Assembly: GCA_964565945.1 (NCBI GenBank)
Contig: CAZMGY010000003.1
Span: 1 to 32,000 of the forward strand
Length of the DNA: 32,000 nucleotides
Direction: 5' to 3'
Source of the DNA: an uncultured bacterium
GTDB taxonomy: Bacteria; GCA-001730085
Made by a program: the position numbers and the translations under genes. This document shows positions 10,527 through 31,826 of this stretch, one piece after another; the stretch's first letter is position 1; every line of letters starts with the position of its first letter. The notes under the pieces were generated by a model. It had not been told where the DNA came from, did no database searches, and worked only from the letters and a program-made list of their open reading frames with translations.

Positions 10527-11141
10527 ATGAAAATGGCTTTTATTGGGCCTCCTGGAATTGCCAAGGGAACCCATGCCAAGCGTTTAGCAAAAGAAACACA
10601 TCGTCCTCATATTTCCACGGGCGATATGTTTAGAAACGCGATAGTAGCAGAAACAAAGGAAGGGGAGTTGGCTCCGTGTGACAAAGTGATTGCGCGGGTG
10701 ATGGATCGAATTTCTCAGGATGATTGTGAGGAGGGTTATTATTTGGAGGGCTTTCCTCGAATCTTGAATTAAACTGAAGCGTTTGAGCGAACGTTACGTT
10801 CTCAAGGAGAGAGTTCTCGACTTTGCTGTTGAATTTTGTGTCGAGGAAGAAGAAAGGTATTTAATTGGCCGTATTTCGGGTCGTCGCTATTGTTTGACGT
10901 GTCTGGGTATCATTTGTGTAATAAGCCTCCTCAAAATGAGGAACCTTGTGATGTTTGTGGGACTTCGCTGTATCAACGCACTGATGATACAGAAGACACT
11001 CCCGAAAAGAGGTTAGCGATTTTTCATAAATGGGTCAAACGGATGTTGGCTTATGATAGAGATCAGGGAATTCTCCGTTGGGTAGATGCGGGGCATTCTA
11101 TAGAAGAAACTTTTAAAAGTAATAGGATTGTTGTAGAATGA
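10527..11141 (+). pseudogene. adk: Adenylate kinase, disrupted (in-frame stop plus two frameshifts)
   Basis: Frame 0 gives MKMAFIGPPGIAKGT...STGDMFR...EGFPRILN, then TAA at 10770-10772 where Adk normally has Gln (GFPRxxxQ). Homology continues in the +1 frame (LDFAVEFCVEEEERYLIGRISGRRYCLTC, about 10813-10902) after the GAGAGAG run at 10807-10813. It returns to frame 0 near 10900-10905 (GYHLCNKPPQNEEPCDVCGTSLYQRTDD...) and ends at TGA 11139-11141. The P-loop reads GPPGIAKGT rather than GxPGxGKGT. About 10 residues are missing between STGD and GFPR. Confidence 0.75.
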
Positions 11142-15237: not shown

Positions 15238-15612
15238 GTGATGCTGGTCGCTTTGGTTTTGGTTGCTCATGGAAGTCTTACTCAGCAATGGGCTAAACCT
15301 TTTGAAATTTTGCAAAAAAATATTCAAGAACAACATCCCGAAAAAGATGTTGTTCTTTCTTTTTTACAGCTGATGTCGCCTGATGTGATGCAGGCTGTTG
15401 AGCAACTTTATTGTGAGGGTTGTCGGGCAGTTAAGTTGTGGCCTCTTTTTTTAGGCTTAGGTTCGCATATGACCGATGATATTCCTACACTATTGGCTCA
15501 AATCCAAGAAACATACCCCGATATGAAGTGTGAGGTTTTGCCAGCTTTGGCCGAAGACGAACAGATCCTGAGGTCTTTGGTGCAAAGAGGGATCGGATTT
15601 TTAGAAAGTTAA
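15238..15612 (+). CDS. Small CbiX/SirB-like class II chelatase-fold protein (putative)
   Basis: 124-aa ORF. LVLVAHGS near the N-terminus and PLFLGLGSHMTDDIP resemble the short CbiX (sirohydrochlorin chelatase) signature. The start could be GTG 15238 or ATG 15241. The assignment rests on motif memory only. Confidence 0.55.
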   Translation: MMLVALVLVAHGSLTQQWAKPFEILQKNIQEQHPEKDVVLSFLQLMSPDVMQAVEQLYCEGCRAVKLWPLFLGLGSHMTDDIPTLLAQIQETYPDMKCEVLPALAEDEQILRSLVQRGIGFLES

Positions 15613-17062: not shown

Positions 17063-17184
17063 GGGGTTTTTGTTGAGAACATTCTAAGTGTTATGAAATG
17101 TTACTGTATAAGATTATTTTAATACAATCTAACAGTTTTTTAATTAAAAAAAATGTATATTTTAATAAAATTTCGATTATTTAA

Positions 17185-17214
17185 TTGACTCATAATGCTT
17201 TTTTATGATAAAAT
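17185..17214 (+). promoter_or_regulatory. Putative sigma70-type promoter of the giant ORF
   Basis: -35 TTGACT (17185-17190), an 18-nt spacer, and an extended -10 TGaTAAAAT (17206-17214). A/T tracts upstream (about 17130-17184) look like an UP element. It sits about 95 nt upstream of the ATG. Confidence 0.5.
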
Positions 17215-17243: not shown

Positions 17244-17277
17244 CATGCTTTATTTGATCTTTTTTAAATAAAGCATG
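17244..17277 (+). promoter_or_regulatory. Perfect 12-bp inverted repeat (hairpin or operator) in the giant-ORF leader
   Basis: CATGCTTTATTT (17244-17255), a 10-nt loop or spacer, then AAATAAAGCATG (17266-17277). It lies between the putative promoter and the RBS AAGGAGGG (17291-17298). The sequence fact is certain; the function is unknown. Confidence 0.6.
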
Positions 17278-17308
17278 GCTATAAAACCCAAAGGAGGGCA
17301 ATTTTAAC

Positions 17309-20300
17309 ATGTTTAAGAAGGTGATTGGTTCTCTTCGTTGGATCTTGCTGAAGCTTCCAGTCATATTCATCTTACAACTGTTTTTGTTTACCAATGTGAA
17401 CTTGCACGATGTGTTTGCTTTGGCGCCTAACCTTATGAGCAGTCGTGATGAGGGGTGTGCTGCTTTTCAAATGTGTGCACTTGGCCGACAGTTTCGTAGC
17501 CGTACCAACCTGGAGATAGAAAGCAATCGAAAAATTGGCGAAGACCTTTTGGATGACTATAAAAATGATCAGGAAATTTTGCTTGATCGCCGTGCTAAAG
17601 CCGAGAAATTGCGTGACTCTACTGCACGATCTCAAGCTTTGCAACATGATGATGCAGGGATCGATCAAAATTTAGCTTGGTTGGTTGGTGTCTCAAGTGT
17701 GACTGGTTTGGAAAAGGATCAAGCACGTCGTGTCCTTTCGAGTTTGACCATCAACCGTAGCCAAACGGAAACAGGGCAAATTCAATACGCTTATGGTGAT
17801 ATGCCTTTCTTTGAAGTGACGAATGTCCGTGGAGATCACTTTGTGATGGTGGTCAATCGTCCCGAGGTAGCGGGGGAGGAAACCGCTTACCAGGGCTTTT
17901 CTCAAGTCCATCTTAAGGCTCAGCAAGATGGCCGTGATTTTCGCATGATGAATCGTGCCGACAAGGGGAATTTTTTGTTTATCAAATTGAAGGATGGTGA
18001 GTCGGCGCGTGATGCTGTGGTGAATGAAGTGCACGATACTCGCCAAAGTTTAGGGCAGGTGCGTGAAATTTCGGGGCATCTGGCCTCCAGCATGTATGAG
18101 GCCATGGCTCAAGGGGCGATTGCAAAGGCTTTTTTGGATGTGCAAGAGGATTTTGAATTAAGCAAACGTCGTGAACATGAAGCTTCCGAACGTGAACACG
18201 AGCAAGCAGGGATTCTGGCCGAGAGTTGGGCGCAATCAAATGTGCGTGAAGCAATTTCCAAGATGTCCTTGGTGGGCTTGGATGTGAATGAGAACGCTTC
18301 ATCTCAGCTGTTAAATACGCAGCGTCAACAATTGGAGAGAGCCGATATAGTGGATGAGGTTCAAAAGTCCTTAGATAAAGAATTCAACGAGGCAGATAAG
18401 GCCTTTAAGGCGCTTATTAAGGATAGCGAAAGAAACCCTTTGAATTATTTGTCCATAAAGAGTGAGATTGAACTCTTGGGCTGCAAGGTGAGTGGAGATA
18501 GCGACTGGAATGATGGTACGAAGCCGATCATTGAGGTTGATGAAGAAGTGTTTACGAATCATGTAAATAGCATGACTATAGAGCTTACTCGCCACAATCA
18601 CAATGTGGATCTCCTGCTGCAGAAAGGGGAATGGTTGGAAGCGGAGTTGGCTGAGATAAAAGATGAAAAAGAGTCTATCAAAATTAATCGTGCTGTTTAT
18701 GTGGGCAAGCTTGTAACCTTTTTGGAGAAGCAGATAGAGGCCCATCCTGCTTTACTCATACAATTGGCTAACGAGGCTGGCTATGATGCAAGAGTGATGG
18801 ATGAGACTCTACGTAGTGGGCAGATTGAAAATTTACTGCATTCAGATGTACCATTATTTCAAATCATTTTGGGTTTAGCTAACCAAGAAAATGAACCATC
18901 TATGACAAGGAATTTACAGAACTTACTGGCCCTGAATGGGAGATTGAAAAAGCTGGAAGATAAGGAAAGCGAATACACACAAGAACAGCAGGAGATTAAT
19001 GATAATGCATGGGTCAGTGTACAGAGTTTGCAAGCCTATTTTGAAAAGTCGTTCGTGCAAAATTTTTTGAAGGCTGTTTTGAACGACGAGGAAGCTTTAT
19101 CCCTAGATCTTTTAATGAAAATTACAAATAAGCAGGACATCAAGGCAAATGTCAGTATTTTGCGAGAATTTTACACAAAAATGACTAGTTTAGAAGCCTT
19201 AGACATCGCTGTTTTGGAGAAGCGTTTGGAGCGTAATTTAGACAATGAGTGGAAAATGAAATTGGAAAATGCATGGGAGCTCCTTATGGAGGCTCCCTTG
19301 TTGGAACAGGGAGCTTATTTTGTTGCGAGAAAGGTCGAAGAGGATTTTGTAAGGAAGGCTCGTTTGTCGATGCAAGGGGCTTTGCAAGTCGAAAACGCAC
19401 GTCAGGCCTATGATCAAGTATTGAAGACTAACATCACCCAGCTAACCGAGATTGTAGAAGAATTAAAGTCAAATAGCAAAGTGAGTTATCGCCGTGCTCA
19501 AGTAGCTGCCTTGCAGATTGATATGATGCATCTTATTGAGAGCACGATTAAAAATGATTTGATGAGTTTTGATCCACGTACGATTGAATCCCTGTTCGAT
19601 AGTATGGGTCAGATTATGGAAGATTCTGCGCGACAGTCAGGTCTTTTTACTGAATCCATTGGCAAGGCCCTTGTGGAAGGTGTGAAAAGTTTGTTACAGA
19701 CAAGCTATGGTGTGGGAGTGCTTATCCGTCCGACAGGAACTGGAACAACTTTGGGCGGAGCTCTCGATAACCTTATTCTTAATAGTGGTGTGAGTTCTAA
19801 TCCGCGTACTCGTGTTTTGGATCGAATTAAGCCTACTCATGTGCGACGCTTGTTGAATGATTCAGCTAAGTGGCAGTTGCGTGCGCGGGCGATGCAGTTT
19901 GTCGATACGGTCTTTAACGAATTACAGAAAGGGCCAGTAGATGCGAGCACGATGGATTTATACGCACGTTCTTTGTTGCCTCTGTTTCAGTTTTACAACG
20001 AAGAAATGGCTAACGAACAAAAAGGACTTGTGCCACATCCTGTTTTTGCCGGACGTGGACCGGGAAGCTTTCGTGGCAAGTTAGAAGCGATCATGAAACC
20101 GACAGATAATGGCATGATGCAGCGTGTTGGAGTTCAAACGACTCAAGCCGCGCAGCAAGAGATGGGTCAGCTAAAAACGGAAACACAGCGTTTGATTCAA
20201 AATATAGTGAATCAGACGCGCCTCAATTTACAACGTGCTGGCAATGATAAAGTGAGTCTTGAGCTTAATGACGATTACTCGGTGAGCTTCAGCCTGAAGG

Positions 20301-23300
20301 AATTGGATGGGAAGAAGATTACTCTTTCTCGTCAGCAAATGCAAGCTTTGATCGCTGGTGAGTCTGTTAGAGAAGAGGCTGTGATATTTGACTCTACTGA
20401 TAGAGGCAACAGTTTAGTTATAGGTTATATTGTGACCGATGCGGGACAAGTTCAGCAAAACCGTCAACAAGGAGGGATCACTCAACCTGTAGTGCCTCTG
20501 TCTAAAAGCGAGATTGAGACCAAAGTCTTGGGACGTGTTCGTGATGCCGAAAAAACCGCATTGCAACAGAGACTTTCTAGAGAAGGTTCGTCGATTGCTG
20601 TGCGAAAAGCAATCGAATTAAGTCGAGATGAAAATCTCTTGATTGCAGATAGTGAAGACAAAGATAAGCGTAGCGATAAAGACTTGGCTGAGGCCATGCT
20701 TGTTAAGGAAATGTCTAGGGGAGAATCAATAGTACGCTTTTTCGGCACAATAGTTCTTTTGAGTGTGACCATGATGTCAGTTGTGATTGTGATTGCTTTA
20801 GCCATGGGAAACTTGCAAGTGCTTCTTTTCGGAGCGTTTATTGTGATTACGATAGCCTTGATCGCTATGATTATCTCTCGCACGGTCGATGCCATTAAAG
20901 GCAAAGGAAAACGTCCTCGTTTTCTCGAGCGGATGATTTATCCAGTTAATCAAAGTGAAAAAGGGAAAAACGTTAGGCGTGTTTTTTGGATTTCCATGCT
21001 TATTCTTGGAGCAGGTCTTCTTGTGGCGACGCTTGTCATTTTCTCGATTAATGGTGTGGCTTTTTTTGATTTGGGAAGCACTGTGTTAACCGCCGAACAG
21101 TTGGTGTTGCCGATCATTGGAGGAATGGTGGGCGCTTCTTTTCTGTTTGGACTTATTGGAAGTATTGTTACGTTTAAAGGAATTGGAGAAGGCGGGACCA
21201 AAAAGGCGGCGGAACGTTTACGAGAAGAGAGAGAGCGCGCTTCAGACGGTTTTGTGCCAAAAGAAGATGAGAATCTAACAAAAGCCCGTGAGATTTCAGC
21301 TGATGTGAAAAATAATTTACGGCGCATGGTATTTGCACTTAAACAAGCGAAATTGAGTGACCGTCAGATCGAAAAGGCGCTTAAGAATGTTGAACAAGAG
21401 CATTTGGTAGGTTGGAACGAGAACGTAGAGGCTCAAGATCGTGAAGATTTAGAAGTGGGAGGTGTTTTAGGAGTTTTGCAGGGGGTTCTCAAAAAAGGAG
21501 CCAAAGACGATGTGAAAGCGAAGATAGACAAAGCGATCGATGAGATTTTGAAACCTATACTTGCAGTATTGGATAGGACCGCCACGAAGGATATTTTAGA
21601 TGCTGTTAATCAGGATTTGAATCTTAATGTGGAGATATCCGAGATAGAGCGTCAGGTGGGTGCAGAGGATGCTACTCGTGTTAGGGATGCTACTACTAAG
21701 CTAGGACAGGCACAGCAAGAGGGGGAGGATTCCGATGATATAGCAACAACTGCCGATGTTCAGCGAGAGGTTAGTGTTAAACTTGTCGATGTTTTAAAGT
21801 TCTACCGTCAGTTGGAGGAGCAAGCCGATGTTATTACTAATGCGGCTGAGCTAAAAGAAAACGATATTCAGGCTCAAGGGCAGGTTGGTCAAAGTGTGTT
21901 GGGGCAGCAGCCAGGTGTGACATTTCCTTTGCAAGGCATGGGGTTTCAAAATCAACAGCGTTTAGGGGGTATGTCTGGTGCGTTAAAATCCCTTTTGAGT
22001 CAGTCAACTCCCTCGAAACAAGGGGAGTTCGGTGAAGATTTTGATCAGCTACTGCAAGCTCAATCTTTGGAGAATGCCGAAAGTGGAAAGGGGCAATCGC
22101 AGATATTGCCGCCCTTAACCGCCCCTGATGAGTTGCTGTTGAATGAAGGTACTAGGCGCGTAAACTCTAACAATAGTTTCCCGTATATGGAGCAGACGCG
22201 TCAATATCATGAAAATAGCCTGAGTGGCTTTAAGGAAAAAATAGAGGGGGATATTTCTAAGTTGCCTCCTGCTCAACAGGCGGAATATCAAGAGCGTTTG
22301 GCCGATGTAGAAAACTTTGGGCCGCGACGCTCACCCCCATTTCGTGGAGGGGATAAGCACGAGGATACACTTGTGGAGGTTATCAATGATTTAGAGCAAG
22401 AGCTGTCTACGTCGCAATCGTCATATTTGGACTCTTCTTTTGAATCTGATGTGAGTTCTAAAGAGCTGCTAAGAGCGCAAAATAATTTTGAGCGTACTGT
22501 TGAGGCAGGAGAAGCCCGTCGACAAACCTTGATAAAGGATTACGTTGATACGATGGAGACCTATCAAAAACAATTGAATCTTGCAGATAAGCCAAGCACC
22601 TTTGCCGAAATAAGCGTTTTAGCAAGCAAAAAAAATAATCTGTCCTTGCTGTTTGATATTTCTCAAGCGCGTAAATCCTTGTTTCAGCGAGCTAGAGATA
22701 TCGATTTCAATTTAGAACGACACTTACAAAAGAGGGAGCAAGATTCTGGTTTTCTTGTGGAGTCCAGCAATCTTATGTCTCATCAAGTGGACCATTTAGA
22801 CTCTCAGAGCAATGCCTTCTCTGAGAGTCTTCAGTTTTTGGATGGGGATTTTCTTGAAAACTTGCATAGCTCAAATGAAAGGGTCCAAAGTCTTTTTGAT
22901 GATGTTATTAGTTTCGACAGGAATTTGAGAGTAATGGCATCTTTTCAGGAATTGGAGAGAGAAGAGAGGATCGTGAATAAGATTAAGACCCGTTTGTTTT
23001 CATTGAAATCAGAGATGGAGAAGGCTTCCGTGGAAAAGATAGAGAAATGGATTAGCTATCAATTGGAGACAATTGCGGCGCTACGTCAGGGCAAAGAAGA
23101 TCAGGTAAAAAATATTCAGGGTCTAAAGGATATTACAGGTAATACTCGGATTCCAGATGATCTCCTAGAGGCTTTGTTACCTCGAAGGCAGTCGTTGCAA
23201 CAAGATGAGATAGGTATTAAGCCGCTTGTGCCTTCTGTTCGTAAAGGGTTACTCTTAGAAGTCCCTCAACAAACGGACGATGTGCGGGTTGTGATGAATC

Positions 23301-26300
23301 GCGATAGATTGAAAGTCCAATTGCAAAATAAATTCGATATTAATGCGGTTGATATTGAGACCTTTTTGACTCATTTGGAAGGGCTAAAAGTGTTAAAGGC
23401 GCAGGCTGATGGTAATGTTGAGTTCAAAGCCTCTGTACTACGAAAAAAGCAGGCTGATTTATTATTACCCCGAGGTGTTTCGCTTAGAAACGTGCAAGAG
23501 GCCTTTGTGCAAGTGGCTGACGATTTGAGGATTGATGGGACAGGCGTTGCGAATCAACAAGAATTATCCTTGCAAGTAACGGGGCGACCTAACACAATTA
23601 TACGAGGTGTGATTGGGGTTTTGGCTGTTGGACTTATTGCTGGAGGTGTTGGGCTGCTTTTTGTTTCGAGCCTTTCAGGAATTGGACTTGCCTTGATTAC
23701 GATTGGAGTGGTGGCTTTATTGACAACTACTGTTGTGCGTGACCGTCAGAGGGTGACTAATAAAACGGCATGGGCTTATGGACTTGTGGGTGGAGGCTTA
23801 GCTTTGGCAACTCTGATTCTGGCAATTGTTGGTTTGATGATTGGAATGGCCGTTCCGGTAATTGTTTTGGCCGTAACAACGGCGGTTGTTGTGTCTATGA
23901 TTTTTGTGACACAATTGGTGCACCGTGCGTTTGTTCCGCGTCAAGAAGTACGGGTAAATGTGCTTAAAGAAAGTCGTACGATGAAAGCCATTCGGATTAT
24001 TGCAGGTGTTCTTGCCTTTGCGACCATTGTGGGTTTGGTTGTTTTTTTTGGTATAGCCACTGGGACGAATGCTTTGATTGTGTTGGGGATACCGTTTCTG
24101 TTGCTCTTATGGACGATGGCAGTGTATCGCTTTGGCACTAAGGATTATCAACGGGAAGCTTTTCGTAATCGTGGATTTTTTCCCACACTTTTTCACAATA
24201 TTTCTTCCACTTTTTTGGGACAAGTGATTACGCTTGTCTTGTTGATTGGACTGGGTGCAGGACTTTTTTTTGGCTTGAGTGGATTTATGATGGCGGCCAA
24301 TTTGGGAGGTTTTTTGTTGGTGGCTGGGGTGGCGCTTTTGGTGATTGTGCTGTTGTATCACTTGGGCAAAACCATTTTTGGTCGTTCGGACTTTTTGTAT
24401 AAAAAGACATCTACATCTGAGTCAAATCAAGATTTGACCGTGATACATCTTAAGAGCCAGAGTGGTAAGCAATCGGGATTAAATGTTGCTCCTATCATTC
24501 CAGGAATTGGAGAAGCGAAAGGCCCTGAGTATATTTACCGTTTAGCAAAAACGCCCAATGGTGAAGAGAGTTATGTGCGTGTTAAGGTGGGTCGCTTTAA
24601 GCGTCAAATTGTTGATAGTAGTGATGCTAGAGGTTTGTTTGGTACCAAACGGCAAGCAAATGGTTATAAATTCGAAGCCAAACAGGTTCCTGGAGACAAG
24701 ATTGAAGGCTATAACGGTCAGGCGGATAATCGTATTTTGGTGATGACCGAAGAAGGTACGAAGCTACGCACTTCAAGAGCTGGGGGATACATCATAGCGG
24801 CGATCATTTTATTAACGATTCTTGCCATAGCGATAGCTGTTTTGGCGGTTGAGTTGGGAGGGACTTTTGAAGCGATTGGGACATTTATTGCCAATATTGC
24901 GACAGCAGGGTTTGCGTTGCCTACCGTTACTGCAGTGGGAACCGCGGGTGGAGGAACTGGAGCTGTGATTGCGACTTTTTTTACGACAACTTTACCCAAT
25001 GCTGTTTTATGGCTTTTTTTGGCAGGAGAAGAAATTTCTCGTTTGGCTGTGATTTTGGCTGGTGTGGGTATTCTTGTTATGGTGGGCTTGGCGACGGTGC
25101 GTTTTTATTTGAATAATCACGTCAATGAACGTAAATACGATCCTAAAATTTTGCCTGAAGGTCAGAAAATGACTCGCGAGCAAACGATTACAGAAGCCAA
25201 TATCTATTTGAAAAATCGTCGTGCTGTGGATTGGTTTCATCGTTTGATGATGGGTTTAATGTTATTGGCGATTCTTGCTGCAGCGATTGGTGTTGCGCTG
25301 GGAGGATCTGCGGTTTTTGCAATTACAATGCCTCTCTTTGCCGTAAGTGTGGGTATCTTTTTGCTCTATGAGTTGGTGAGCATTTTGAACAGGATGCGAA
25401 AAAGAGCGTTCCCGACGAAAATCGAGTATCAAGAAATAGATCCTGTTTCGGGTCAACCTGTGATCAAAACGATCAATTTGGAGCCTCGCCAATTGTTGCC
25501 AATCTGGATGGAGGTGTTGGCTTTTATAGCTGTTGTGGGATTCTTTTCTTTGAGCTTGATTCCCAGTATTGGTACGTTGGCTCTGTCTATGATTTTGATT
25601 GGTGCGGCGGTGATCATATTGATTTTCTATGGATTTCGCGAATTTAAAAATCATCGCTATAGCCTGAAGAGTAGAGATTTGAAAGATCTTGAAAAAGGAA
25701 ACGCAGATCAAGAGCAAGCGTGGGTGGAAGAGCACCAAGATGTGCAAGAGTTTTTAACTGATTTGTCAAATAAAGGCTATACCTATCCCGATGCGCATAA
25801 GAATACCTTGCAAAGCTATGTCAATCGTTTGACTTCAAATCATCCTGATTATGTCCAAGACACTGCTGCGAGAGCTGCAGTGGTTCAAGAGATGAAGACT
25901 TATCTCGATACGATGAAGTCTGTTTTGACGAAGACTGCAGGCACACAGTTTGATCCCAAGGCTGTTGGGCAAGAAGGATTTTCTTTTGAAGCCAAAGCGA
26001 TTATTGATGCTGTGGGCACTTCTCAAATTTATGAGTTTCTCAGGGAATTAGAGGAGTTACCTCAATTGGATGCTGGCGCTATCCTGCCACTTTACAGTTT
26101 TAGGAACGGTCCGATCTTTACTTCTGTTCGGGAACAAATCAATGATCAAATGCGACAAGGTCAGGTAAGAGATGTGACAGCTCGTCCTGATGCTAAAGCG
26201 GTTCTTAAAGCTATGGAGGTTAAAGTTGCTAGTTGGGAAGATAAATCTCCAAGAGTTGTGATTAAGGAGATTAACCAAGAAGTGTATAACTTGTATTACG

Positions 26301-29300
26301 AACAAGTGAAAGCTCATTTTGAGCGCAAAGGTATAGCTTTTCCTAATAGTTTAAAGGCACGGGGGGTGCACCCTAATGGCAAGAATAACTTAGCGAATTT
26401 GATTGAGGCCTTAAAAACGGAACAAGCACGATTGTCTCAGACGAATTCTTCTCAAGCTTTGGTGATTATGAAGCTATTGACCAGTTTGGAAGGTGATCAA
26501 GATCTTAAAACTTTGCTCGACCGGAGAGACCAAAATCTTCGTCAGCATTTGAAGGTATTGCAAAAGATGTTTTTTACGGAACAAACGTATGAAAATATCG
26601 CTCGTTTGCGTGTGGTGGAGCCTCTTTTGAAAGGCCCGGTTAAAAGCCAATTGAATTTTGTCATGAAAAATCAGTTGAAGTCCTTGGGTCAAAGTCCTTC
26701 TTTTAACGAGTTTACGAGTAGGATGATTAACTGGACTCGACCAGATTCTTCTGTGCGTGAAGGGTTGCTTAATGCGACCACGCGATCGGAATGGGAGGTT
26801 TTTAATGAGAATAGTCTGGACCGGGCGGTTGAGAATAGAACGGATAGTGTTGATTTTATGAAGAACTTAGGTCTGATGTATAGTCGCTTGGATTACTATG
26901 TGTTCGAGGATGTTCTTAAAAACATCAATTCTCAGGTGGTGAATGTCTGGGCGGCCCAAGGCCGTACAGACGTTTTGGCGCGTAAAAATTTAAAGTTTCT
27001 TGAAGCTTCTATTATTCAACACAGTCTGGATAAGCAGCAACGATATCATGCTTGGCTTTTGTATAGGGATTTAGCTAATAAAATGAAGGTGGTTATGCCA
27101 GAGACAATTGAGAATGAAATTTCTGTTTTGGGGGAGAGTTTTGTCAAAACAAATCAGCAGAACGGTACTTTGTGGAAAGTCTTGCAGGCACAAGTAAATC
27201 AGTTGATTGATCAAGAGGAGATGGTTGACTTGGTGGTGATGAGACATCGGGCTTCTGATGGAGTTTGGGAAGTGGCGGTGGCGCCACATCCAGAAGGTTA
27301 TAGCGGAGAAATAGCTTTGCCTAGAGTTCAAAAAGAAGATGGTAATGTAGAGTCTAAGGCTAGGATGAATGAAAAAATGTGGTCATTTCTTGGCAGGGAT
27401 AGCACAATGTCACGGACTGATGCTCCTTTCTTCGTTGTGTTTGAAGGGGATTTGAAAGATACTCGTGTCGAAGATGGTGAAGGACGGGTGAAGGTGCAGG
27501 CTCGTATGGTGATGCTAGAAGGAGCGGATGTGGAAAATTCTGACTACCAAAACTTGCAATGGCATGAGGTTGAAGATTTTATGAAGAATGCAAGGGTTTT
27601 TGGTGAGCAGGATGTGGTGGTTCGGCAAGCTATGCGCATGCAAAAACGTAAGGAAGAATTAGGGTATATGGCAAGCGAAAGAGATTTCTATGACAGGGTA
27701 GTTTACCAGGCCTTGGAACACCTTAATCCTTCTAACAAAAAGGGTTTTTTGCTTCTTGAGAACTATAATGAACTTATGCAGAGTAAGTCCTATAGCACGA
27801 AAGCGATTGTTGAGTATTTGGAAAAGAATCACTTTTCAGATGCTCGAGATCAATTTTTGAACGAGATGATTGAGGTTTTAGCTAACGACGGAGAGAATAT
27901 CTCTGTAGAGACCTTACAAGAGATTCTTGAGGAAGAAAATGTTGTTTTAACCTCTAGTAGCTCTGGAGGAACTTTGGAACAAGCGATGCGTGATGTGATT
28001 TTGTACAGGGCTTGGGATCCTCGTGCAATTGTGCAACAAACAGAATTTCAAACCTTGCTTACGCAATGGAGTGTGGCTGGTATTCACGTGAATACCGATG
28101 ATCTGAATAAGAATAGTTTCCAAAATCAAGTGAGGAAGACTTCTTCTTTGAAGTTGCACCAGGTGCTGAATGATTTGATGCTATATATTCATCGTAAGGA
28201 ATTTCAGCATCCGCAAGAATTAAATGCATTCATAGTTTTCCTTGGACTGGGCAGGGTTGTTGGAGAAAATGGACGTCTGTCTCTGGAGTTAGATGTGAAG
28301 GATCTTGGGTCTAGTACAGAGATGTGTCAGTCTGTCTTGGCAAATAAAATGAAAGAGAAAAATATCGACAGATACTTGTCTGATGATTCTTACAATGTCA
28401 TGACCCCGAGGGCCGCTAACGTGCAGAGGCAACAGAGCTTGAGCGAAAAATCACTCAACGAGAGCCTGGACTTTGGCAGCAGGGAAGAGGAGGATTCCGA
28501 AGATACTCGGAGCGTGGCCGCTTCTTATTATGAAGAGGAACCAGAGATGAATGAGGAAGATGATATATTTACAGATCCTTTGGCGCTTAAGCGTGAAGTT
28601 GGCTTGGATGCCAAATCTGTGCGTGAGCGTGTGGGACAGCCGAAGGCAACAGCAGCTCAAAATATGGCCACGGTGACGTTTGCTACAAATGGCGCTCCTT
28701 CTGTTAACTTTACTCGTGAAACACCAACTCACGTGCAAGGTGCGATAAAATCAGTGGTTGAGGCTGTAATGCGTGCTGATACCTGGAGGAGGCAAGATTT
28801 ACGACCACGGATGCGTGAAGACGTTATTCCTGGAGATCTTCGTCAGACAATGAGGAATGCTTTGGGGGTTAGCGTAGATACTAAGAGGAAGGAATTTGTC
28901 TTGGAGGCCTTAACGCCTGACTCAATGGTAAAAAGGTTTCCTAAGGGCATTCAAATCCGTTACGATACGAATATGGGCAACTCGGCATCGTACAAGCGAG
29001 AAGACGATACCTTGGTTATTTATATCAATAGCACTTTGACTGGAGATGTAGCGAATGTTCAAGCGGTGCAAGCGATGGTTAAAAAAGCTATGTTGCACGA
29101 AATGGTAGAAACACTCTTGGTGCAAAAGCTTACTCTTATGGGTGTTTGGCAGGATATGTCTACGGCGATGCGTCCATGGCAAACCGATTCCGCCGCTTTT
29201 AGCTTGAAAGTCGAATTCGAAGCATCGGTCGAAGCGATTGCGATTCAAATGATGCCGGCTCAAGAGTTGATTAACTTGCAAGAAGCCTATGAAGAGTTTG

Positions 29301-29497
29301 TCGATTTAGATCTGTTCGAAGATATGATACGTGAGTTCTCGGCTGACTGGGAACATGAACTTATACGCCCTGATCAAATGAGAAGCAATGTGACCGCCTT
29401 GGGGAATCTTGCGTCGGCTGCTAAAACCGAAACAGGACAGGTTCAACGTACTAATGACTTTACACGTACCTGGATGGCCACCGCAATGGCGGCGTAG
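17309..29497 (+). CDS. Giant (4062 aa) polytopic membrane protein of unknown function
   Basis: Uninterrupted 12,189-nt ORF with RBS AAGGAGGG 10 nt upstream of the ATG. It has an N-terminal hydrophobic signal or anchor (aa 10-37, possible cleavage after DVFA). Three hydrophobic blocks of paired TM helices lie at nt 20729-21176, 23597-24365 and 24781-25640. They are separated by large E/Q/K/L-rich soluble regions. I recognise no named domain. Confidence 0.9.
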   Translation: MFKKVIGSLRWILLKLPVIFILQLFLFTNVNLHDVFALAPNLMSSRDEGCAAFQMCALGRQFRSRTNLEIESNRKIGEDLLDDYKNDQEILLDRRAKAEKLRDSTARSQALQHDDAGIDQNLAWLVGVSSVTGLEKDQARRVLSSLTINRSQTETGQIQYAYGDMPFFEVTNVRGDHFVMVVNRPEVAGEETAYQGFSQVHLKAQQDGRDFRMMNRADKGNFLFIKLKDGESARDAVVNEVHDTRQSLGQVREISGHLASSMYEAMAQGAIAKAFLDVQEDFELSKRREHEASEREHEQAGILAESWAQSNVREAISKMSLVGLDVNENASSQLLNTQRQQLERADIVDEVQKSLDKEFNEADKAFKALIKDSERNPLNYLSIKSEIELLGCKVSGDSDWNDGTKPIIEVDEEVFTNHVNSMTIELTRHNHNVDLLLQKGEWLEAELAEIKDEKESIKINRAVYVGKLVTFLEKQIEAHPALLIQLANEAGYDARVMDETLRSGQIENLLHSDVPLFQIILGLANQENEPSMTRNLQNLLALNGRLKKLEDKESEYTQEQQEINDNAWVSVQSLQAYFEKSFVQNFLKAVLNDEEALSLDLLMKITNKQDIKANVSILREFYTKMTSLEALDIAVLEKRLERNLDNEWKMKLENAWELLMEAPLLEQGAYFVARKVEEDFVRKARLSMQGALQVENARQAYDQVLKTNITQLTEIVEELKSNSKVSYRRAQVAALQIDMMHLIESTIKNDLMSFDPRTIESLFDSMGQIMEDSARQSGLFTESIGKALVEGVKSLLQTSYGVGVLIRPTGTGTTLGGALDNLILNSGVSSNPRTRVLDRIKPTHVRRLLNDSAKWQLRARAMQFVDTVFNELQKGPVDASTMDLYARSLLPLFQFYNEEMANEQKGLVPHPVFAGRGPGSFRGKLEAIMKPTDNGMMQRVGVQTTQAAQQEMGQLKTETQRLIQNIVNQTRLNLQRAGNDKVSLELNDDYSVSFSLKELDGKKITLSRQQMQALIAGESVREEAVIFDSTDRGNSLVIGYIVTDAGQVQQNRQQGGITQPVVPLSKSEIETKVLGRVRDAEKTALQQRLSREGSSIAVRKAIELSRDENLLIADSEDKDKRSDKDLAEAMLVKEMSRGESIVRFFGTIVLLSVTMMSVVIVIALAMGNLQVLLFGAFIVITIALIAMIISRTVDAIKGKGKRPRFLERMIYPVNQSEKGKNVRRVFWISMLILGAGLLVATLVIFSINGVAFFDLGSTVLTAEQLVLPIIGGMVGASFLFGLIGSIVTFKGIGEGGTKKAAERLREERERASDGFVPKEDENLTKAREISADVKNNLRRMVFALKQAKLSDRQIEKALKNVEQEHLVGWNENVEAQDREDLEVGGVLGVLQGVLKKGAKDDVKAKIDKAIDEILKPILAVLDRTATKDILDAVNQDLNLNVEISEIERQVGAEDATRVRDATTKLGQAQQEGEDSDDIATTADVQREVSVKLVDVLKFYRQLEEQADVITNAAELKENDIQAQGQVGQSVLGQQPGVTFPLQGMGFQNQQRLGGMSGALKSLLSQSTPSKQGEFGEDFDQLLQAQSLENAESGKGQSQILPPLTAPDELLLNEGTRRVNSNNSFPYMEQTRQYHENSLSGFKEKIEGDISKLPPAQQAEYQERLADVENFGPRRSPPFRGGDKHEDTLVEVINDLEQELSTSQSSYLDSSFESDVSSKELLRAQNNFERTVEAGEARRQTLIKDYVDTMETYQKQLNLADKPSTFAEISVLASKKNNLSLLFDISQARKSLFQRARDIDFNLERHLQKREQDSGFLVESSNLMSHQVDHLDSQSNAFSESLQFLDGDFLENLHSSNERVQSLFDDVISFDRNLRVMASFQELEREERIVNKIKTRLFSLKSEMEKASVEKIEKWISYQLETIAALRQGKEDQVKNIQGLKDITGNTRIPDDLLEALLPRRQSLQQDEIGIKPLVPSVRKGLLLEVPQQTDDVRVVMNRDRLKVQLQNKFDINAVDIETFLTHLEGLKVLKAQADGNVEFKASVLRKKQADLLLPRGVSLRNVQEAFVQVADDLRIDGTGVANQQELSLQVTGRPNTIIRGVIGVLAVGLIAGGVGLLFVSSLSGIGLALITIGVVALLTTTVVRDRQRVTNKTAWAYGLVGGGLALATLILAIVGLMIGMAVPVIVLAVTTAVVVSMIFVTQLVHRAFVPRQEVRVNVLKESRTMKAIRIIAGVLAFATIVGLVVFFGIATGTNALIVLGIPFLLLLWTMAVYRFGTKDYQREAFRNRGFFPTLFHNISSTFLGQVITLVLLIGLGAGLFFGLSGFMMAANLGGFLLVAGVALLVIVLLYHLGKTIFGRSDFLYKKTSTSESNQDLTVIHLKSQSGKQSGLNVAPIIPGIGEAKGPEYIYRLAKTPNGEESYVRVKVGRFKRQIVDSSDARGLFGTKRQANGYKFEAKQVPGDKIEGYNGQADNRILVMTEEGTKLRTSRAGGYIIAAIILLTILAIAIAVLAVELGGTFEAIGTFIANIATAGFALPTVTAVGTAGGGTGAVIATFFTTTLPNAVLWLFLAGEEISRLAVILAGVGILVMVGLATVRFYLNNHVNERKYDPKILPEGQKMTREQTITEANIYLKNRRAVDWFHRLMMGLMLLAILAAAIGVALGGSAVFAITMPLFAVSVGIFLLYELVSILNRMRKRAFPTKIEYQEIDPVSGQPVIKTINLEPRQLLPIWMEVLAFIAVVGFFSLSLIPSIGTLALSMILIGAAVIILIFYGFREFKNHRYSLKSRDLKDLEKGNADQEQAWVEEHQDVQEFLTDLSNKGYTYPDAHKNTLQSYVNRLTSNHPDYVQDTAARAAVVQEMKTYLDTMKSVLTKTAGTQFDPKAVGQEGFSFEAKAIIDAVGTSQIYEFLRELEELPQLDAGAILPLYSFRNGPIFTSVREQINDQMRQGQVRDVTARPDAKAVLKAMEVKVASWEDKSPRVVIKEINQEVYNLYYEQVKAHFERKGIAFPNSLKARGVHPNGKNNLANLIEALKTEQARLSQTNSSQALVIMKLLTSLEGDQDLKTLLDRRDQNLRQHLKVLQKMFFTEQTYENIARLRVVEPLLKGPVKSQLNFVMKNQLKSLGQSPSFNEFTSRMINWTRPDSSVREGLLNATTRSEWEVFNENSLDRAVENRTDSVDFMKNLGLMYSRLDYYVFEDVLKNINSQVVNVWAAQGRTDVLARKNLKFLEASIIQHSLDKQQRYHAWLLYRDLANKMKVVMPETIENEISVLGESFVKTNQQNGTLWKVLQAQVNQLIDQEEMVDLVVMRHRASDGVWEVAVAPHPEGYSGEIALPRVQKEDGNVESKARMNEKMWSFLGRDSTMSRTDAPFFVVFEGDLKDTRVEDGEGRVKVQARMVMLEGADVENSDYQNLQWHEVEDFMKNARVFGEQDVVVRQAMRMQKRKEELGYMASERDFYDRVVYQALEHLNPSNKKGFLLLENYNELMQSKSYSTKAIVEYLEKNHFSDARDQFLNEMIEVLANDGENISVETLQEILEEENVVLTSSSSGGTLEQAMRDVILYRAWDPRAIVQQTEFQTLLTQWSVAGIHVNTDDLNKNSFQNQVRKTSSLKLHQVLNDLMLYIHRKEFQHPQELNAFIVFLGLGRVVGENGRLSLELDVKDLGSSTEMCQSVLANKMKEKNIDRYLSDDSYNVMTPRAANVQRQQSLSEKSLNESLDFGSREEEDSEDTRSVAASYYEEEPEMNEEDDIFTDPLALKREVGLDAKSVRERVGQPKATAAQNMATVTFATNGAPSVNFTRETPTHVQGAIKSVVEAVMRADTWRRQDLRPRMREDVIPGDLRQTMRNALGVSVDTKRKEFVLEALTPDSMVKRFPKGIQIRYDTNMGNSASYKREDDTLVIYINSTLTGDVANVQAVQAMVKKAMLHEMVETLLVQKLTLMGVWQDMSTAMRPWQTDSAAFSLKVEFEASVEAIAIQMMPAQELINLQEAYEEFVDLDLFEDMIREFSADWEHELIRPDQMRSNVTALGNLASAAKTETGQVQRTNDFTRTWMATAMAA

Positions 29498-29674: not shown

Positions 29675-30661
29675 ATGAAGTTTCTAGTATCTATGGTGGC
29701 TTGCTTGTTGGTCAGTGGTTTGGTCTGGGCCAAGACCGAAGAGATTCAACTGACAACTTATTATCCTGCTCCCTATGGTGATTTCGAAAGCATTCGTACC
29801 AACGAGATGGAGTATTTGGGTGTGTTGCGTGGTCCTGTTGAAGCTGGTGGTGAAATTGAAAAAGGCGTGACGGGCATTGACGATCTTAAGCGAGGCGATG
29901 TTTACCGAGGCTTTCGTATTTTGGGAGAATTTTTAGAGCCCTATCGTTCGGATGATTTGGCGGCCTTACCCTTGGTCGACTTTGCTTATTATGAATCGGA
30001 TAAGATCTTGTTTAACAATGGTGGTGGGATTTTTTACCAAGATGCGCGCAATGGTATTTTTTTGGATCGCGCAACTAACTATTCCGTGATGCGTTCACGG
30101 GCCGAAATTGTGTTGCAACCGGGTTACACTGGATCGCCGACTGACTACGATTTTGTGGTTCATAATTCGACTGATCATACCGTGATCAGCGAAGGGAAAA
30201 TGTTTATCAAAGGTGATTTTGAAGTGCGTACGCCTGGAGGAGAACGTTTATTGATTGTGAGTGCTCAAGGAGGTAATAACAATAGCCCTGTGATTTTGAT
30301 GAGGTCTAATGTTCTGATTGAGGGGGACTTAACGGTTACGGGAACGATCACGGGTAATATTTCTGGTTCTAATGTGACCATTGATAATCTGCGTGTGAAA
30401 CGTCAATTGTTGGTGCAGAGTGATGCGGAGTTCAATACAAATGGTCATGTTGTCGATGCCGATGCTAGCCATTTGATTGTGCGGGGCTATTTATGGTCCG
30501 ACCATATCCGTTCGACCTTGGGTAATATGTTTGAGGTTCGGGTGAGAAATAACCGCGCGATTGGGCGATTCCGTCGCGGGAATGGTCGGAGTGGGTTTGT
30601 GGCGCTCGCCATCCCTGGTGAGGCCCAGGGGCGCAGTTTTGCTGGAAATCCTTATGTGTAA
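29675..30661 (+). CDS. Secreted hypothetical protein with a beta-helix-like (bactofilin-like) repeat region
   Basis: 328-aa ORF with RBS AAGGAG 5 nt upstream. It has a classic Sec signal peptide (MKFLVSMVACLLVSGLVWA/KT). The C-terminal half carries short G/D/N/T/V-rich repeats (LIEGDLTVTGTITGNISGSNVTIDNLRV) typical of beta-helical proteins. No family was recognised. Confidence 0.8.
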   Translation: MKFLVSMVACLLVSGLVWAKTEEIQLTTYYPAPYGDFESIRTNEMEYLGVLRGPVEAGGEIEKGVTGIDDLKRGDVYRGFRILGEFLEPYRSDDLAALPLVDFAYYESDKILFNNGGGIFYQDARNGIFLDRATNYSVMRSRAEIVLQPGYTGSPTDYDFVVHNSTDHTVISEGKMFIKGDFEVRTPGGERLLIVSAQGGNNNSPVILMRSNVLIEGDLTVTGTITGNISGSNVTIDNLRVKRQLLVQSDAEFNTNGHVVDADASHLIVRGYLWSDHIRSTLGNMFEVRVRNNRAIGRFRRGNGRSGFVALAIPGEAQGRSFAGNPYV

Positions 30662-30761: not shown

Positions 30762-31826
30762 TTGTTGCGTAATTTACTGCTTGTTATTATTGCTGCATCG
30801 CTAATTATTACTTTTTTGTCGTGGAGCAAGAAAGATCCTAAGAAAGAGCCTTCGGTGCGCAAGGTGGACGTAGTGACCTTAGAGGAACGCACTCAGAAGA
30901 AAATCAAAAAGCTTCACGAAGTCGCTCTGACCTATCAGCAGGCGGGAGAGTGGAAAGAAGCTTTGCATACTTGGAAAGATATTGTGAATACTTATCCCGA
31001 AGATGAGCAAACGGCCCAGGCTTTGCAGTCCTTAGTGGTTTTGTATCTTAATAAAAGCCAAACCAAGTTTGCCAATATTTATTTTGAAAAGCTCGAACAA
31101 GGATTTCCCGATAGCGAAGCGATGGCTCAGGCTTTGTACGATAAGGCACAGTATGCCGATAAAGGAGGCAATTTGAGTTCTGCTAAGCTGTCCTACCGTC
31201 GCTTGGTTCGCGATTTCTTTTTCTTCGATAAAATAGCCGAGGTGCAAAAGCGTTTGGAAGATTTGAATATAAGCTTATTATTTTCGAAAAAAATAACGGA
31301 AGGAACGAGCCTTTATCAAGTTCAGAGAGGGGATTCTTTGTCAACCATTGCGCATCGCTTTAACACCACGGTCGATTTTTTATTGCAAGCCAATGGTCTT
31401 AAAATTGACAGTGTGATTCATCCTGGTGATCGTTTAAAAGTGTTTAATCCCAAAGTTAAGATTGGTGTGACCATCGATAAGTCACAAAAAAGCATGTTGC
31501 TTACATTTAACAACGAAGTATTGCGTCGTTACAATATTGCGATTGGCAAAGACGGTAGCACACTTGTTGGAAAATTTGCGGTGCAAAATAAACTGAAAGA
31601 TCCTGTTTGGTTTAATGCTGGTCGGGCTATTCCCCCAGATGACCCCCGTAATGTTTTGGGAACGCGGTGGTTAGGTATTGATCGCGATATAGGGATTCAT
31701 GGAACGGTTGAAAAAAAGCATATTTTGGAACAAACTTCAAACGGATGTATTCGCATGAACAACAAAGAAGTCGAACAATTGTATTCGATTCTGCGTGTCG
31801 GTGATCCAGTTGTGATTGTCGAGTGA
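30762..31826 (+). CDS. Membrane-anchored TPR-like / LysM / YkuD-family L,D-transpeptidase
   Basis: 354-aa ORF with a TTG start 6 nt after AAGGAGGG. It has an N-terminal TM anchor (LLLVIIAASLIITFLSW) and helical TPR-like repeats (about aa 50-170). A LysM motif (YQVQRGDSLSTIAHRFNTTVDFLLQANGL) follows. The YkuD catalytic signature is present (GIHGT...SNGCIRMNNKEV). Confidence 0.88.
   Translation: MLRNLLLVIIAASLIITFLSWSKKDPKKEPSVRKVDVVTLEERTQKKIKKLHEVALTYQQAGEWKEALHTWKDIVNTYPEDEQTAQALQSLVVLYLNKSQTKFANIYFEKLEQGFPDSEAMAQALYDKAQYADKGGNLSSAKLSYRRLVRDFFFFDKIAEVQKRLEDLNISLLFSKKITEGTSLYQVQRGDSLSTIAHRFNTTVDFLLQANGLKIDSVIHPGDRLKVFNPKVKIGVTIDKSQKSMLLTFNNEVLRRYNIAIGKDGSTLVGKFAVQNKLKDPVWFNAGRAIPPDDPRNVLGTRWLGIDRDIGIHGTVEKKHILEQTSNGCIRMNNKEVEQLYSILRVGDPVVIVE

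Follow-up and report, generated by a model that had tools for sequence, protein, structure and literature searches.

A 4062-residue protein with nine predicted membrane hairpins belongs to a three-member family in bacteria of the PVC superphylum

We analysed a 32,000-nucleotide (nt) stretch of DNA from an uncultured bacterium (assembly GCA_964565945.1, contig CAZMGY010000003.1, positions 1 to 32,000 of the forward strand; GTDB lineage GCA-001730085), referred to below as the window, and in particular the gene at 17309..29497, which encodes a protein of 4062 amino acids (aa), here called the giant. An earlier note on this DNA had concluded that the protein matched no family that it could name. 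Sequence comparison now places it as the largest member of a previously undescribed family of three proteins from two related bacteria of the superphylum that unites Planctomycetes, Verrucomicrobia, and Chlamydiae (PVC). The hydropathy profile of the giant shows a polytopic membrane protein whose membrane part is built from nine two-helix hairpins, with about 3300 residues of domain-less soluble sequence lying between and around the membrane blocks.

To look for relatives, full HMMER was run over 1.84 billion representatives with the least variable 1200 residues of the giant (aa 2049-3248) as the query. The scan returned exactly one match (E 2.7e-18), P0010, a hypothetical protein of 2030 aa from 'PVC group bacterium (ex Bugula neritina AB1)', abbreviated AB1_div. 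On the AB1_div contig, P0010 is followed by a second paralog of 2757 aa and then by a gene encoding 340 aa. The two tandem paralogs (L002 4590-19032) are closer to each other than to the giant. A word-indexed search of 5.8 billion proteins with the giant, P0010, and a profile of the C-terminal domain as queries gave only self-clusters or a fragment, and this index thus missed the true relatives that full HMMER recovered. No relatives were found in JGI metagenomes with patterns from the C-terminal domain profile and the 10-aa pattern KV[ED]FEA[SAT]V[ED]A searched in DNA; three pattern matches were dismissed as chance by tblastn. Viral contigs of IMG/VR, plasmids, and phages likewise yielded no match to a family member.

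When the whole giant was compared with the Pfam, NCBIfam, PADLOC, and PHROGs profiles and with all PDB chain sequences, no significant match was found anywhere along its length. The best sub-significant matches (MavL, E 0.017; DnaB_N, E 0.037; tape-measure, E 0.053) were treated as noise, and the PADLOC anti-phage defence models gave 0 families. Walker A, HExxH, and CxxC motifs were scanned for in the giant and none is present. Self-BLASTP revealed no internal repeats, and tandem domain repeats (RTX, Ig, cadherin) or modules of nonribosomal peptide synthetases or polyketide synthases were absent according to self-BLASTP, Pfam, and NCBIfam. These libraries bear out the earlier statement that the protein shows none of the usual hallmarks of giant proteins and falls into no described family that can be named. 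The description of the N-terminal 1100 residues or so as coiled-coil-looking finds no support, as a crude heptad score marks only about 135 aa of the giant; the arms, though probably helical, are not coiled coils of the classical kind.

The organization of the family was mapped by pairwise and profile comparisons with BLASTP, phmmer, and MAFFT. All three members begin with a signal-like segment that carries an F-[LF]-F-[TM]-N motif. A block of four transmembrane (TM) helices follows only in the giant and the 2757-aa paralog; P0010 is without it and has SGERSSEVNRRR tandem repeats ahead of its TDPL motif. The third module is a core of 14 TM helices with a basic insert (motifs FLYKK, G-[RK]-F-[KQ]-R, Y-E-[LM], and I-[NK]-L-E), which continues into a juxtamembrane stretch, and the fourth is a C-terminal domain of about 310 aa that comes after a charged linker. 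The core of the giant is 21-24% identical to those of the AB1_div proteins, and the conserved modules overall are 21-36% identical. The N-terminal and middle arms cannot be aligned across the two species, and their lengths differ about twofold. The features of the giant are as follows.

17309..29497, + strand: the giant gene, with an ATG start and 4062 codons plus stop, concordant in five independent assemblies.
17318..17425, + strand: N-terminal signal-like hydrophobic segment, aa 4-39 (KK..R, a hydrophobic region with F-L-F-T-N, then VFA/LA), kept in 3/3 family members.
17426..20725, + strand: N-terminal soluble arm, aa 40-1139, lineage-specific, with no library match and unalignable with the AB1_div paralogs.
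20726..21184, + strand: first membrane block, two hairpins with 4 TM helices, aa 1140-1292, homologous to aa 625-759 of the 2757-aa paralog and absent from P0010.
21185..23590, + strand: soluble arm in the middle, aa 1293-2094, which varies more than any other part.
23591..24385, + strand: conserved core part A, four hairpins with 8 TM helices, aa 2095-2359, aligning with both AB1_div proteins; turns of 3-7 aa with no lysine or arginine (K/R).
24386..24769, + strand: basic, beta-rich insert, aa 2360-2487, with FLYKK and G-R/K-F-K/Q-R motifs conserved in the alignment.
24770..25648, + strand: conserved core part B, 6 TM helices, aa 2488-2780, with conserved Y-E-L/M and I-N/K-L-E motifs.
25649..28561, + strand: C-terminal soluble arm, aa 2781-3751, whose membrane-proximal part (up to about aa 2880) is conserved and whose remainder is lineage-specific, with an acidic linker at the end.
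28562..29494, + strand: conserved C-terminal domain, aa 3752-4062 (TDPL-x-LK, PKGI, KKxxLHExxE, KVEFEA, VDLD, SADxEH, and F-x-R-x-W-M ... A-COOH).
29096..29110, + strand: invariant H-E-x-x-E (HEMVE), aa 3930-3934, on a long helix after a three-stranded sheet in a low-confidence model.

Hydropathy analysis of the giant showed nine hydrophobic stretches of 50-65 aa, each of which divides into two helices joined by 3-7 uncharged residues (two of the turns are longer). By this analysis the giant has 18 TM helices, distributed over the 4-TM block and the conserved 14-TM core. Part B of the core runs in the order TM helix, variable 58-aa apolar loop free of K/R, TM helix, and two hairpins. The basic insert contains 24 lysines and arginines in 140 residues, and four strands are predicted in it by a low-confidence AlphaFold2 (AF2) model of the TM core; this model, built from a two-sequence alignment with a predicted local distance difference test score (pLDDT) of 40.4, supports secondary structure only and was too poor for a Foldseek search. 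The earlier note had placed a 4-TM block at aa ~1141-1290, an 8-TM block at aa ~2097-2352, and a beta-looking insert of about 125 aa after them, all of which agree closely with the boundaries given here (aa 1140-1292, 2095-2359, and 2360-2487). Its third block of about eight TM helices is reduced to six clear helices plus the 58-aa apolar loop, and its total of about 20 to 18 plus the N-terminal segment. The membrane blocks that it described are real; it did not mention that each is a series of tight hairpins, two helices apiece, with charges distributed in strict asymmetry.

This asymmetry is common to all three proteins. In the giant, lysine and arginine account for 0 of 84 residues in the hairpin turns and 60 of 323 in the other loops; the corresponding counts are 0/90 and 73/324 for P0010, and 3/104 and 68/291 for the 2757-aa paralog. 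Under the positive-inside rule, the distribution suggests that the soluble bulk is cytoplasmic, i.e. that all the large arms, the basic insert, and the C-terminal domain of the giant lie in the cytoplasm, and that the parts on the periplasmic side would be limited to a single variable loop and the tiny turns of the hairpins. Helix hydrophobicity was estimated by summing values of the Hessa 2005 scale over 19 residues. Nine of the 18 TM helices of the giant have a summed free energy (dG) of -2 kcal/mol or lower, with a minimum of -5.5. The N-terminal segment is only marginally hydrophobic (summed dG +3.2 in the giant and +1.8 to +4.7 in the family). Because of the charge asymmetry and the 18 TM helices, several of them strongly hydrophobic, we infer that the giant resides in the bacterium's own inner membrane and is not an effector of the type of the chlamydial Inc proteins.

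The C-terminal domain of the giant is 36% identical to the domain of P0010 (E 6e-42) and 27% identical to that of the 2757-aa paralog (E 1e-27). Family-wide invariants are TDPL, KK-x-x-LHE-x-x-E, KV-[ED]-FEA, VDL, and S-x-D-x-x-H, and the proteins end in F-x-R-x-W-M ... A-COOH. The H and both E residues of HExxE are invariant in all three proteins, so that the earlier view that no catalytic motif is obvious has to be amended by a conserved, catalytic-looking HExxE at aa 3930-3934. In the better part of a poor AF2 model of the domain (two-sequence alignment, pLDDT 51.7), three strands occupy model residues 141-168 (about aa 3880-3907), and the long helix after them, at 175-204 (about aa 3914-3943), carries H3930-E3931-x-x-E3934. 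The arrangement in this low-confidence model resembles the minimal zincins (SprT-like PF10263, and minigluzincins such as selecase), in which a small beta sheet is likewise followed by a long helix with an H-E opening motif. Unlike them, the domain of the giant has an invariant Glu in place of the second metal-binding His, scores below every threshold, and extends over about 310 aa with a long helical C-terminal extension. Only the 2757-aa paralog gave a match to PF10263, which scored 12.4 bits where the Pfam gathering threshold demands 25.6 (E 0.15 with the complete sequence as query and 0.0088 with the isolated domain), and this sub-threshold match ends inside the HExxE motif; the giant gave no match to PF10263. 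Zincins figure among the top Foldseek matches of the domain model, none of which is significant. NCBIfam added nothing for the domain, and a search of its profile against PDB gave only an HslU fragment with E 0.19, which was treated as noise. HExxH was searched for in all three proteins and is absent. Since HExxH is absent and the profile score is below threshold, membership of the zincins was rejected and only a possible ancestry was retained. The comparison weakly suggests that the domain could be derived from a zincin with an altered metal site (HExxE).

Two genes separate the giant from accA, which the earlier note had taken for its immediate neighbour.

29675..30661, + strand: gene for a 328-aa secreted protein that has a signal peptide, the N-terminal motif YYPAPYGDF, and fibre-like beta repeats in its C-terminal half.
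30762..31826, + strand: gene for a TPR (YbgF/CpoB-like)-LysM-YkuD L,D-transpeptidase, listed for its conserved synteny context only.

The order giant(s), small secreted protein, TPR-LysM-YkuD, accA is kept in both organisms. Of the serS-giant-accA synteny that the earlier note had proposed to look for, the part downstream of the giant is thus conserved in AB1_div, with accA coming only after the two intervening genes. The 328-aa protein is 39% identical (E 2e-71) to the product of the 340-aa gene that occupies the same position after the AB1_div giants. The TPR-LysM-YkuD protein is 68% identical to its AB1_div counterpart in the same position (L003 11764-12816), and AccA is 74% identical, which indicates that the window organism and AB1_div are fairly close relatives. 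With 39% identity for the small protein and 21-36% for the conserved modules of the giant, as against 68-74% for the neighbouring enzymes, the giant locus is, by these comparisons, a fast-evolving island amid conserved surroundings.

In the 328-aa protein the motif KTEEIQLTTYYPAPYGDFE comes after the signal peptide, and the pattern of the N-terminal region is '..E.I.LTTYYPAPYGD[FY]' (29675-30661; L004-L010). The KTEEIQLTTYYPAPYGDFE motif is common to secreted proteins of Omnitrophota and Planctomycetia, one of which bears a Gp53-like tail-fibre end domain; the C-terminal half of the 328-aa protein itself weakly resembles tail-fibre beta repeats. No model in Pfam or NCBIfam describes the YYPAPYGD[FY] N-terminal motif, which could represent a hitherto undescribed module for sorting or anchoring, PVC-wide in distribution. 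The Omnitrophota genes with the YYPAPYG motif have lipopolysaccharide and housekeeping genes as neighbours, and no hairpin giants or dedicated machinery were found when these were looked for nearby; since the Omnitrophota genes are not beside hairpin giants, the pairing of giant and small protein appears to be specific to the present lineage. A search of GTDB representative genomes with a profile of the small protein recovered AB1_div as the sole full-length relative. The small gene itself is present on 11 contigs from at least 10 runs. SRA runs in which the locus occurs are SRR23257892, SRR19987508, SRR19984991/2, SRR12008127/131/134, SRR30680197/230/231, and SRR30621560. The 177-bp spacer between the giant and the small gene was inspected, and no terminator or strong promoter was found in it.

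Six sequences of the giant were compared among strains. There are 43 variable residues: six in the N-terminal arm, 20 in the middle arm, and 17 between aa 3209 and 3725. No substitutions occur in the TM blocks, in the insert, in aa 2049-3208, or in the last 337 residues (aa 3726 to the C-terminus). Between the window and a second strain (L001), the giant gene has 31 nucleotide differences, comprising 28.5 nonsynonymous and 2.5 synonymous ones; the ratio of nonsynonymous to synonymous polymorphism (pN/pS) of about 3.2 departs from neutrality at roughly p = 0.02 by our own binomial estimate, which is based on small counts. The middle arm contributes 13.5 nonsynonymous and 1.5 synonymous differences, and serS and ykuD have none between the two strains. 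The pattern suggests diversifying or relaxed selection on the arms of the giant. The acidic linker (nt 28490-28560, aa 3728-3751) is a hot spot for contig breaks, as six of the ten short-read contigs that carry the small gene end there, and it adjoins an SR/M indel at aa 3724-3725; this suggests a within-sample polymorphism or a low-complexity assembly break.

The explanation that we favour, tentatively and with somewhat less than even confidence, is that the giant is a resident inner-membrane hairpin array with its bulk in the cytoplasm, i.e. a membrane-anchored scaffold, with a C-terminal domain possibly derived from a zincin, and that it is paired with the secreted fibre-like protein encoded downstream. 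The hairpin core would anchor the protein in the inner membrane and could shape or cluster the membrane; the fast-evolving arms may serve as spacers or interaction surfaces; the putatively zincin-derived domain with its altered metal site may act as a binding or processing module; and the giant would probably cooperate with the fibre-like protein, whose gene lies directly downstream in both species. Several observations speak against this explanation. All three proteins have a conserved N-terminus resembling a Sec signal which, if used, would export the N-terminal arm and contradict the topology deduced from the charges, and no additional TM helix that would restore parity was found in any of the three N-terminal arms. 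Both structure models are of low confidence (pLDDT 51.7 for the C-terminal domain and 40.4 for the core). A Foldseek search with the C-terminal domain model gave nothing significant (best E 2.3), and the matches with E > 2, likewise non-significant, include ZMPSTE24, selecase, MATCAP, and BlaR1. The hint of a zincin comes from one paralog with E 0.0088, below the Pfam cut-off, and the defining HExxH is missing. The link between the giant and the small protein is one of synteny between two fairly close relatives. Finally, an excess of nonsynonymous changes is seen more typically in proteins that are exposed or face a host than in a scaffold inside the cell.

The last point, and the N-terminus, would be easier to understand if the giant faced the envelope, with a working Sec signal and with arms that are periplasmic or on the surface, forming together with the fibre-like protein, and perhaps with the LysM-YkuD enzyme, an apparatus for adhesion or envelope tethering. 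The N-terminal segment has the tripartite n/h/c shape of a signal, with VFA/LA and SLA/T cleavage-like sites in all three proteins, and its low hydrophobicity is as in cleaved signals. The neighbouring genes encode secreted or envelope proteins, and quick divergence of the arms together with an excess of nonsynonymous changes would be expected of exposed proteins. Such an orientation, however, would make the K/R-rich loops (19-23% K+R) periplasmic and the K/R-free turns cytoplasmic in all three proteins, which amounts to a wholesale violation of the positive-inside rule, and the arms have neither adhesin-type repeats nor beta-rich domains. We therefore regard an envelope-facing giant as unlikely. 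As to the earlier suggestion of an N-terminal signal or anchor, the signal-like segment stands, being conserved in all three proteins, whereas the reading of it as an export signal conflicts with the charge asymmetry.

A bolder version of the scaffold, which we hold to be quite unlikely, would make the giant a new kind of bacterial membrane organiser. In it, the array of nine hairpins would cluster or bend the inner membrane and bear kilodalton-scale cytoplasmic arms, serving as a scaffold for division, shape, or the host interface in a host-associated PVC lineage without FtsZ and being coupled across the envelope to the secreted fibre protein. Membrane-shaping proteins of the reticulon/REEP type, which are small, eukaryotic, and built on one or two hairpins, share with the giant the paired hydrophobic helices, the minimal luminal turns, and, as predicted for the giant, the placement of all soluble mass on one face of the membrane. 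The giant differs from them in having nine hairpins and no homology to them, and a role in curvature is putative in its case.

The hairpins also recall the chlamydial Inc proteins, which belong to the same superphylum, have bilobed hydrophobic domains (about 40-60 aa, two TM helices with a very short turn), keep their soluble parts on one side of the membrane, and are fast-evolving orphans. The giant might accordingly be thought of as a translocated effector, exported from the bacterium and inserted by its bilobed hairpins in a host-derived membrane with the arms toward the host cytosol. Its nine bilobed stretches of 50-65 aa with minimal turns would fit, as would its being a fast-evolving, tandemly duplicated orphan and the nature of the lineage, a host-associated one of the PVC superphylum with a small genome and a decayed adk. 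Inc proteins, however, have one or two bilobed domains, are mostly shorter than 1000 aa, are of moderate TM hydrophobicity, and are exported by a type III secretion system (T3SS), whereas the giant contains nine hairpins, several of its helices are very hydrophobic, and its sequence is not similar to any of the Inc families. Membrane substrates of T3SS have 1-3 TM segments with a dG peaking near -1 kcal/mol (PMC6110835), and with 18 TM helices and dG values down to -5.5 the giant lies far outside the range of the known membrane substrates that secretion systems of types III and IV export. In addition, its N-terminus is Sec-like and not like a T3S signal, and no secretion-system genes were seen within about 40 kb of genome. 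Membership of the Inc family was rejected, as the number and hydrophobicity of the TM helices are incompatible with T3SS substrates, and an Inc-like mode of action is very improbable.

Equally little probability attaches to a channel or transporter in which the 14-TM core would conduct ions or substrates and the arms would be regulatory. Within the species no region is more constrained than the TM core, which is also conserved throughout the family, and several helices are rich in Gly. There are, however, no matches to transporter families, even weak ones; turns that measure 3-7 aa and lack polar or charged residues, together with helices that have hardly any conserved polar residues, are atypical of transport pathways; and the identity of the core across species is only 21-24%, as compared with 68-74% in the neighbouring enzymes.

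The possibility that the giant is a self-processing polyprotein, whose C-terminal zincin-like domain would cleave the precursor, e.g. at the linker or at TDPL, and free separate products, likewise receives little credence from us. An invariant TDPL-x-LK follows a disordered charged linker in all members, and the HExxE helix after a beta sheet, together with the weak SprT-like or zincin hints, would be in keeping with a peptidase. Cleavage by embedded peptidases has also been proposed for giant PVC proteins (bioRxiv 10.1101/2023.11.21.568195). Against these points stand the missing HExxH and the lack of a match to any protease family at significance.

An artefact, whether a chimeric assembly, a pseudogene fusion, or an open frame that does not code for protein, has negligible probability and was ruled out by five concordant full-length assemblies, by codon statistics that are native, by a chance of about e^-215, and by homologs conserved with identical module order and a core without variation, even though many short-read contigs end within the giant gene near nt 28490-28560. 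The full-length giant is found in five independent assemblies (one from NCBI and four from Logan/SRA) as the exact protein and four variants of about 99% identity. Because the same full-length protein appears in all five, the gene is not a chimera, which the earlier note had named as the finding that would overturn it. That note had also held the open reading frame (ORF) too long to arise by chance; with a frequency of stop trinucleotides in the window of 5.15%, the natural logarithm of the probability of 4062 stop-free codons is approximately -215, and over 17309..29497 the remaining two forward frames are interrupted by 281 and 343 stops. The GC content per codon position of the giant agrees with that of the neighbouring housekeeping genes, and the codon-usage correlation is r = 0.85. 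The ORF is a genuine, native gene.

In the window, tuf (3' end) and the S10/spc/alpha ribosomal operons are followed by a small gene resembling CbiX, by serS, and, after an AT-rich spacer of 246 bp, by the giant ORF. Candidate start signals were read from the spacer, in agreement with the earlier claim of a ribosome-binding site and a promoter of the gene's own, the latter being a promoter-like consensus match.

17185..17214, + strand: sigma-70-like promoter candidate, TTGACT-18 nt-TG-TAAAAT, with 10/12 consensus matches and a TG extension (consensus match only), within the 246-bp spacer downstream of serS.
17244..17277, + strand: perfect inverted repeat of 14 bp (hairpin) within the 5' leader, with the -10 box before it and the ribosome-binding site after it.
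17289..17297, + strand: ribosome-binding site AAAGGAGGG (GGAGG), 11 nt before the ATG, read from the sequence.

The fold of the leader has a minimum free energy of -27.1 kcal/mol (z = -3.0), and equally good folds occurred in 0 of 200 shuffles. The inverted repeat is identical in L001 and could be a regulatory hairpin or an operator. The serS-giant spacers of the window and L001 differ by 1 bp in the length of a poly-A run (17141-17150), upstream of the promoter-like site, and by two additional point differences.

Giant proteins with similarities in layout are known from the Omnitrophota ('Archaeovorin' etc.). Like the giant, these are very long PVC ORFs with many TM regions amid large, poorly annotated soluble stretches and with signal-like N-termini. 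They exceed 30,000 aa, contain divergent SecA_DEAD, peptidase (C39/S8), and carbohydrate-active domains, and are mostly predicted to be extracellular (bioRxiv 10.1101/2023.11.21.568195). The giant, unlike them, has 4062 aa, none of their Pfam domains (E up to 1), and no detectable homology to them.

AB1_div has a 1.91-Mb genome of 34.7% GC, belongs to the PVC superphylum, and was described from the ovicells of a bryozoan (Bugula neritina) (PMC5041132). By 16S, 'NPL-UPA2' comes closest to it; AB1_div itself branches basal to Planctomycetes and lacks FtsZ but possesses a full peptidoglycan pathway (PMC5041132). The TPR-LysM-YkuD gene encodes a notable cell-wall enzyme in view of the reported lack of FtsZ in the lineage. 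Elsewhere in the window, adk is decayed at its place in the secY-adk-map order (10528-11141): a P-loop (GPPGIAKGT) can be recognized, in-frame stops are present at 10771 and about 10831, and a frameshift separates the GRRYCLTC part from the GYHLCNKPP...CDVCG part. Unless a second copy is located elsewhere, the loss of adk would be in line with dependence on a host. A 124-aa gene resembling CbiX/sirohydrochlorin chelatase lies between rplQ and serS (15238-15612), which is an unusual location. Throughout the window (1-32000) the GC skew has strongly positive values, from +0.16 to +0.30, and every real gene is on the + strand.

Orphan giant ORFs are common enough in metagenomes, and the function proposed here for the giant is a low-confidence guess. 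If the layout is true, the protein has an architecture without a described counterpart, in which nine hairpins and three soluble arms of very large size are combined with an end domain that carries HExxE. The family is so far seen only in one small-genome and barely studied PVC lineage that is associated with marine invertebrates. The giant is presumably important to the cell, because about 12 kb of DNA is kept while the genome of the sequenced relative is only about 1.9 Mb. With 4 kb of protein as compared with the giants of 30-85 kb, it offers a compact and tractable case for studying the role of TM-rich PVC giants, and the conflict between its signal peptide and its charge-rule topology makes it a useful test case for membrane-protein biogenesis. 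The giant diverges far faster than its neighbours, a pattern that is usual for molecules at the interface with a host, phage, or the environment.

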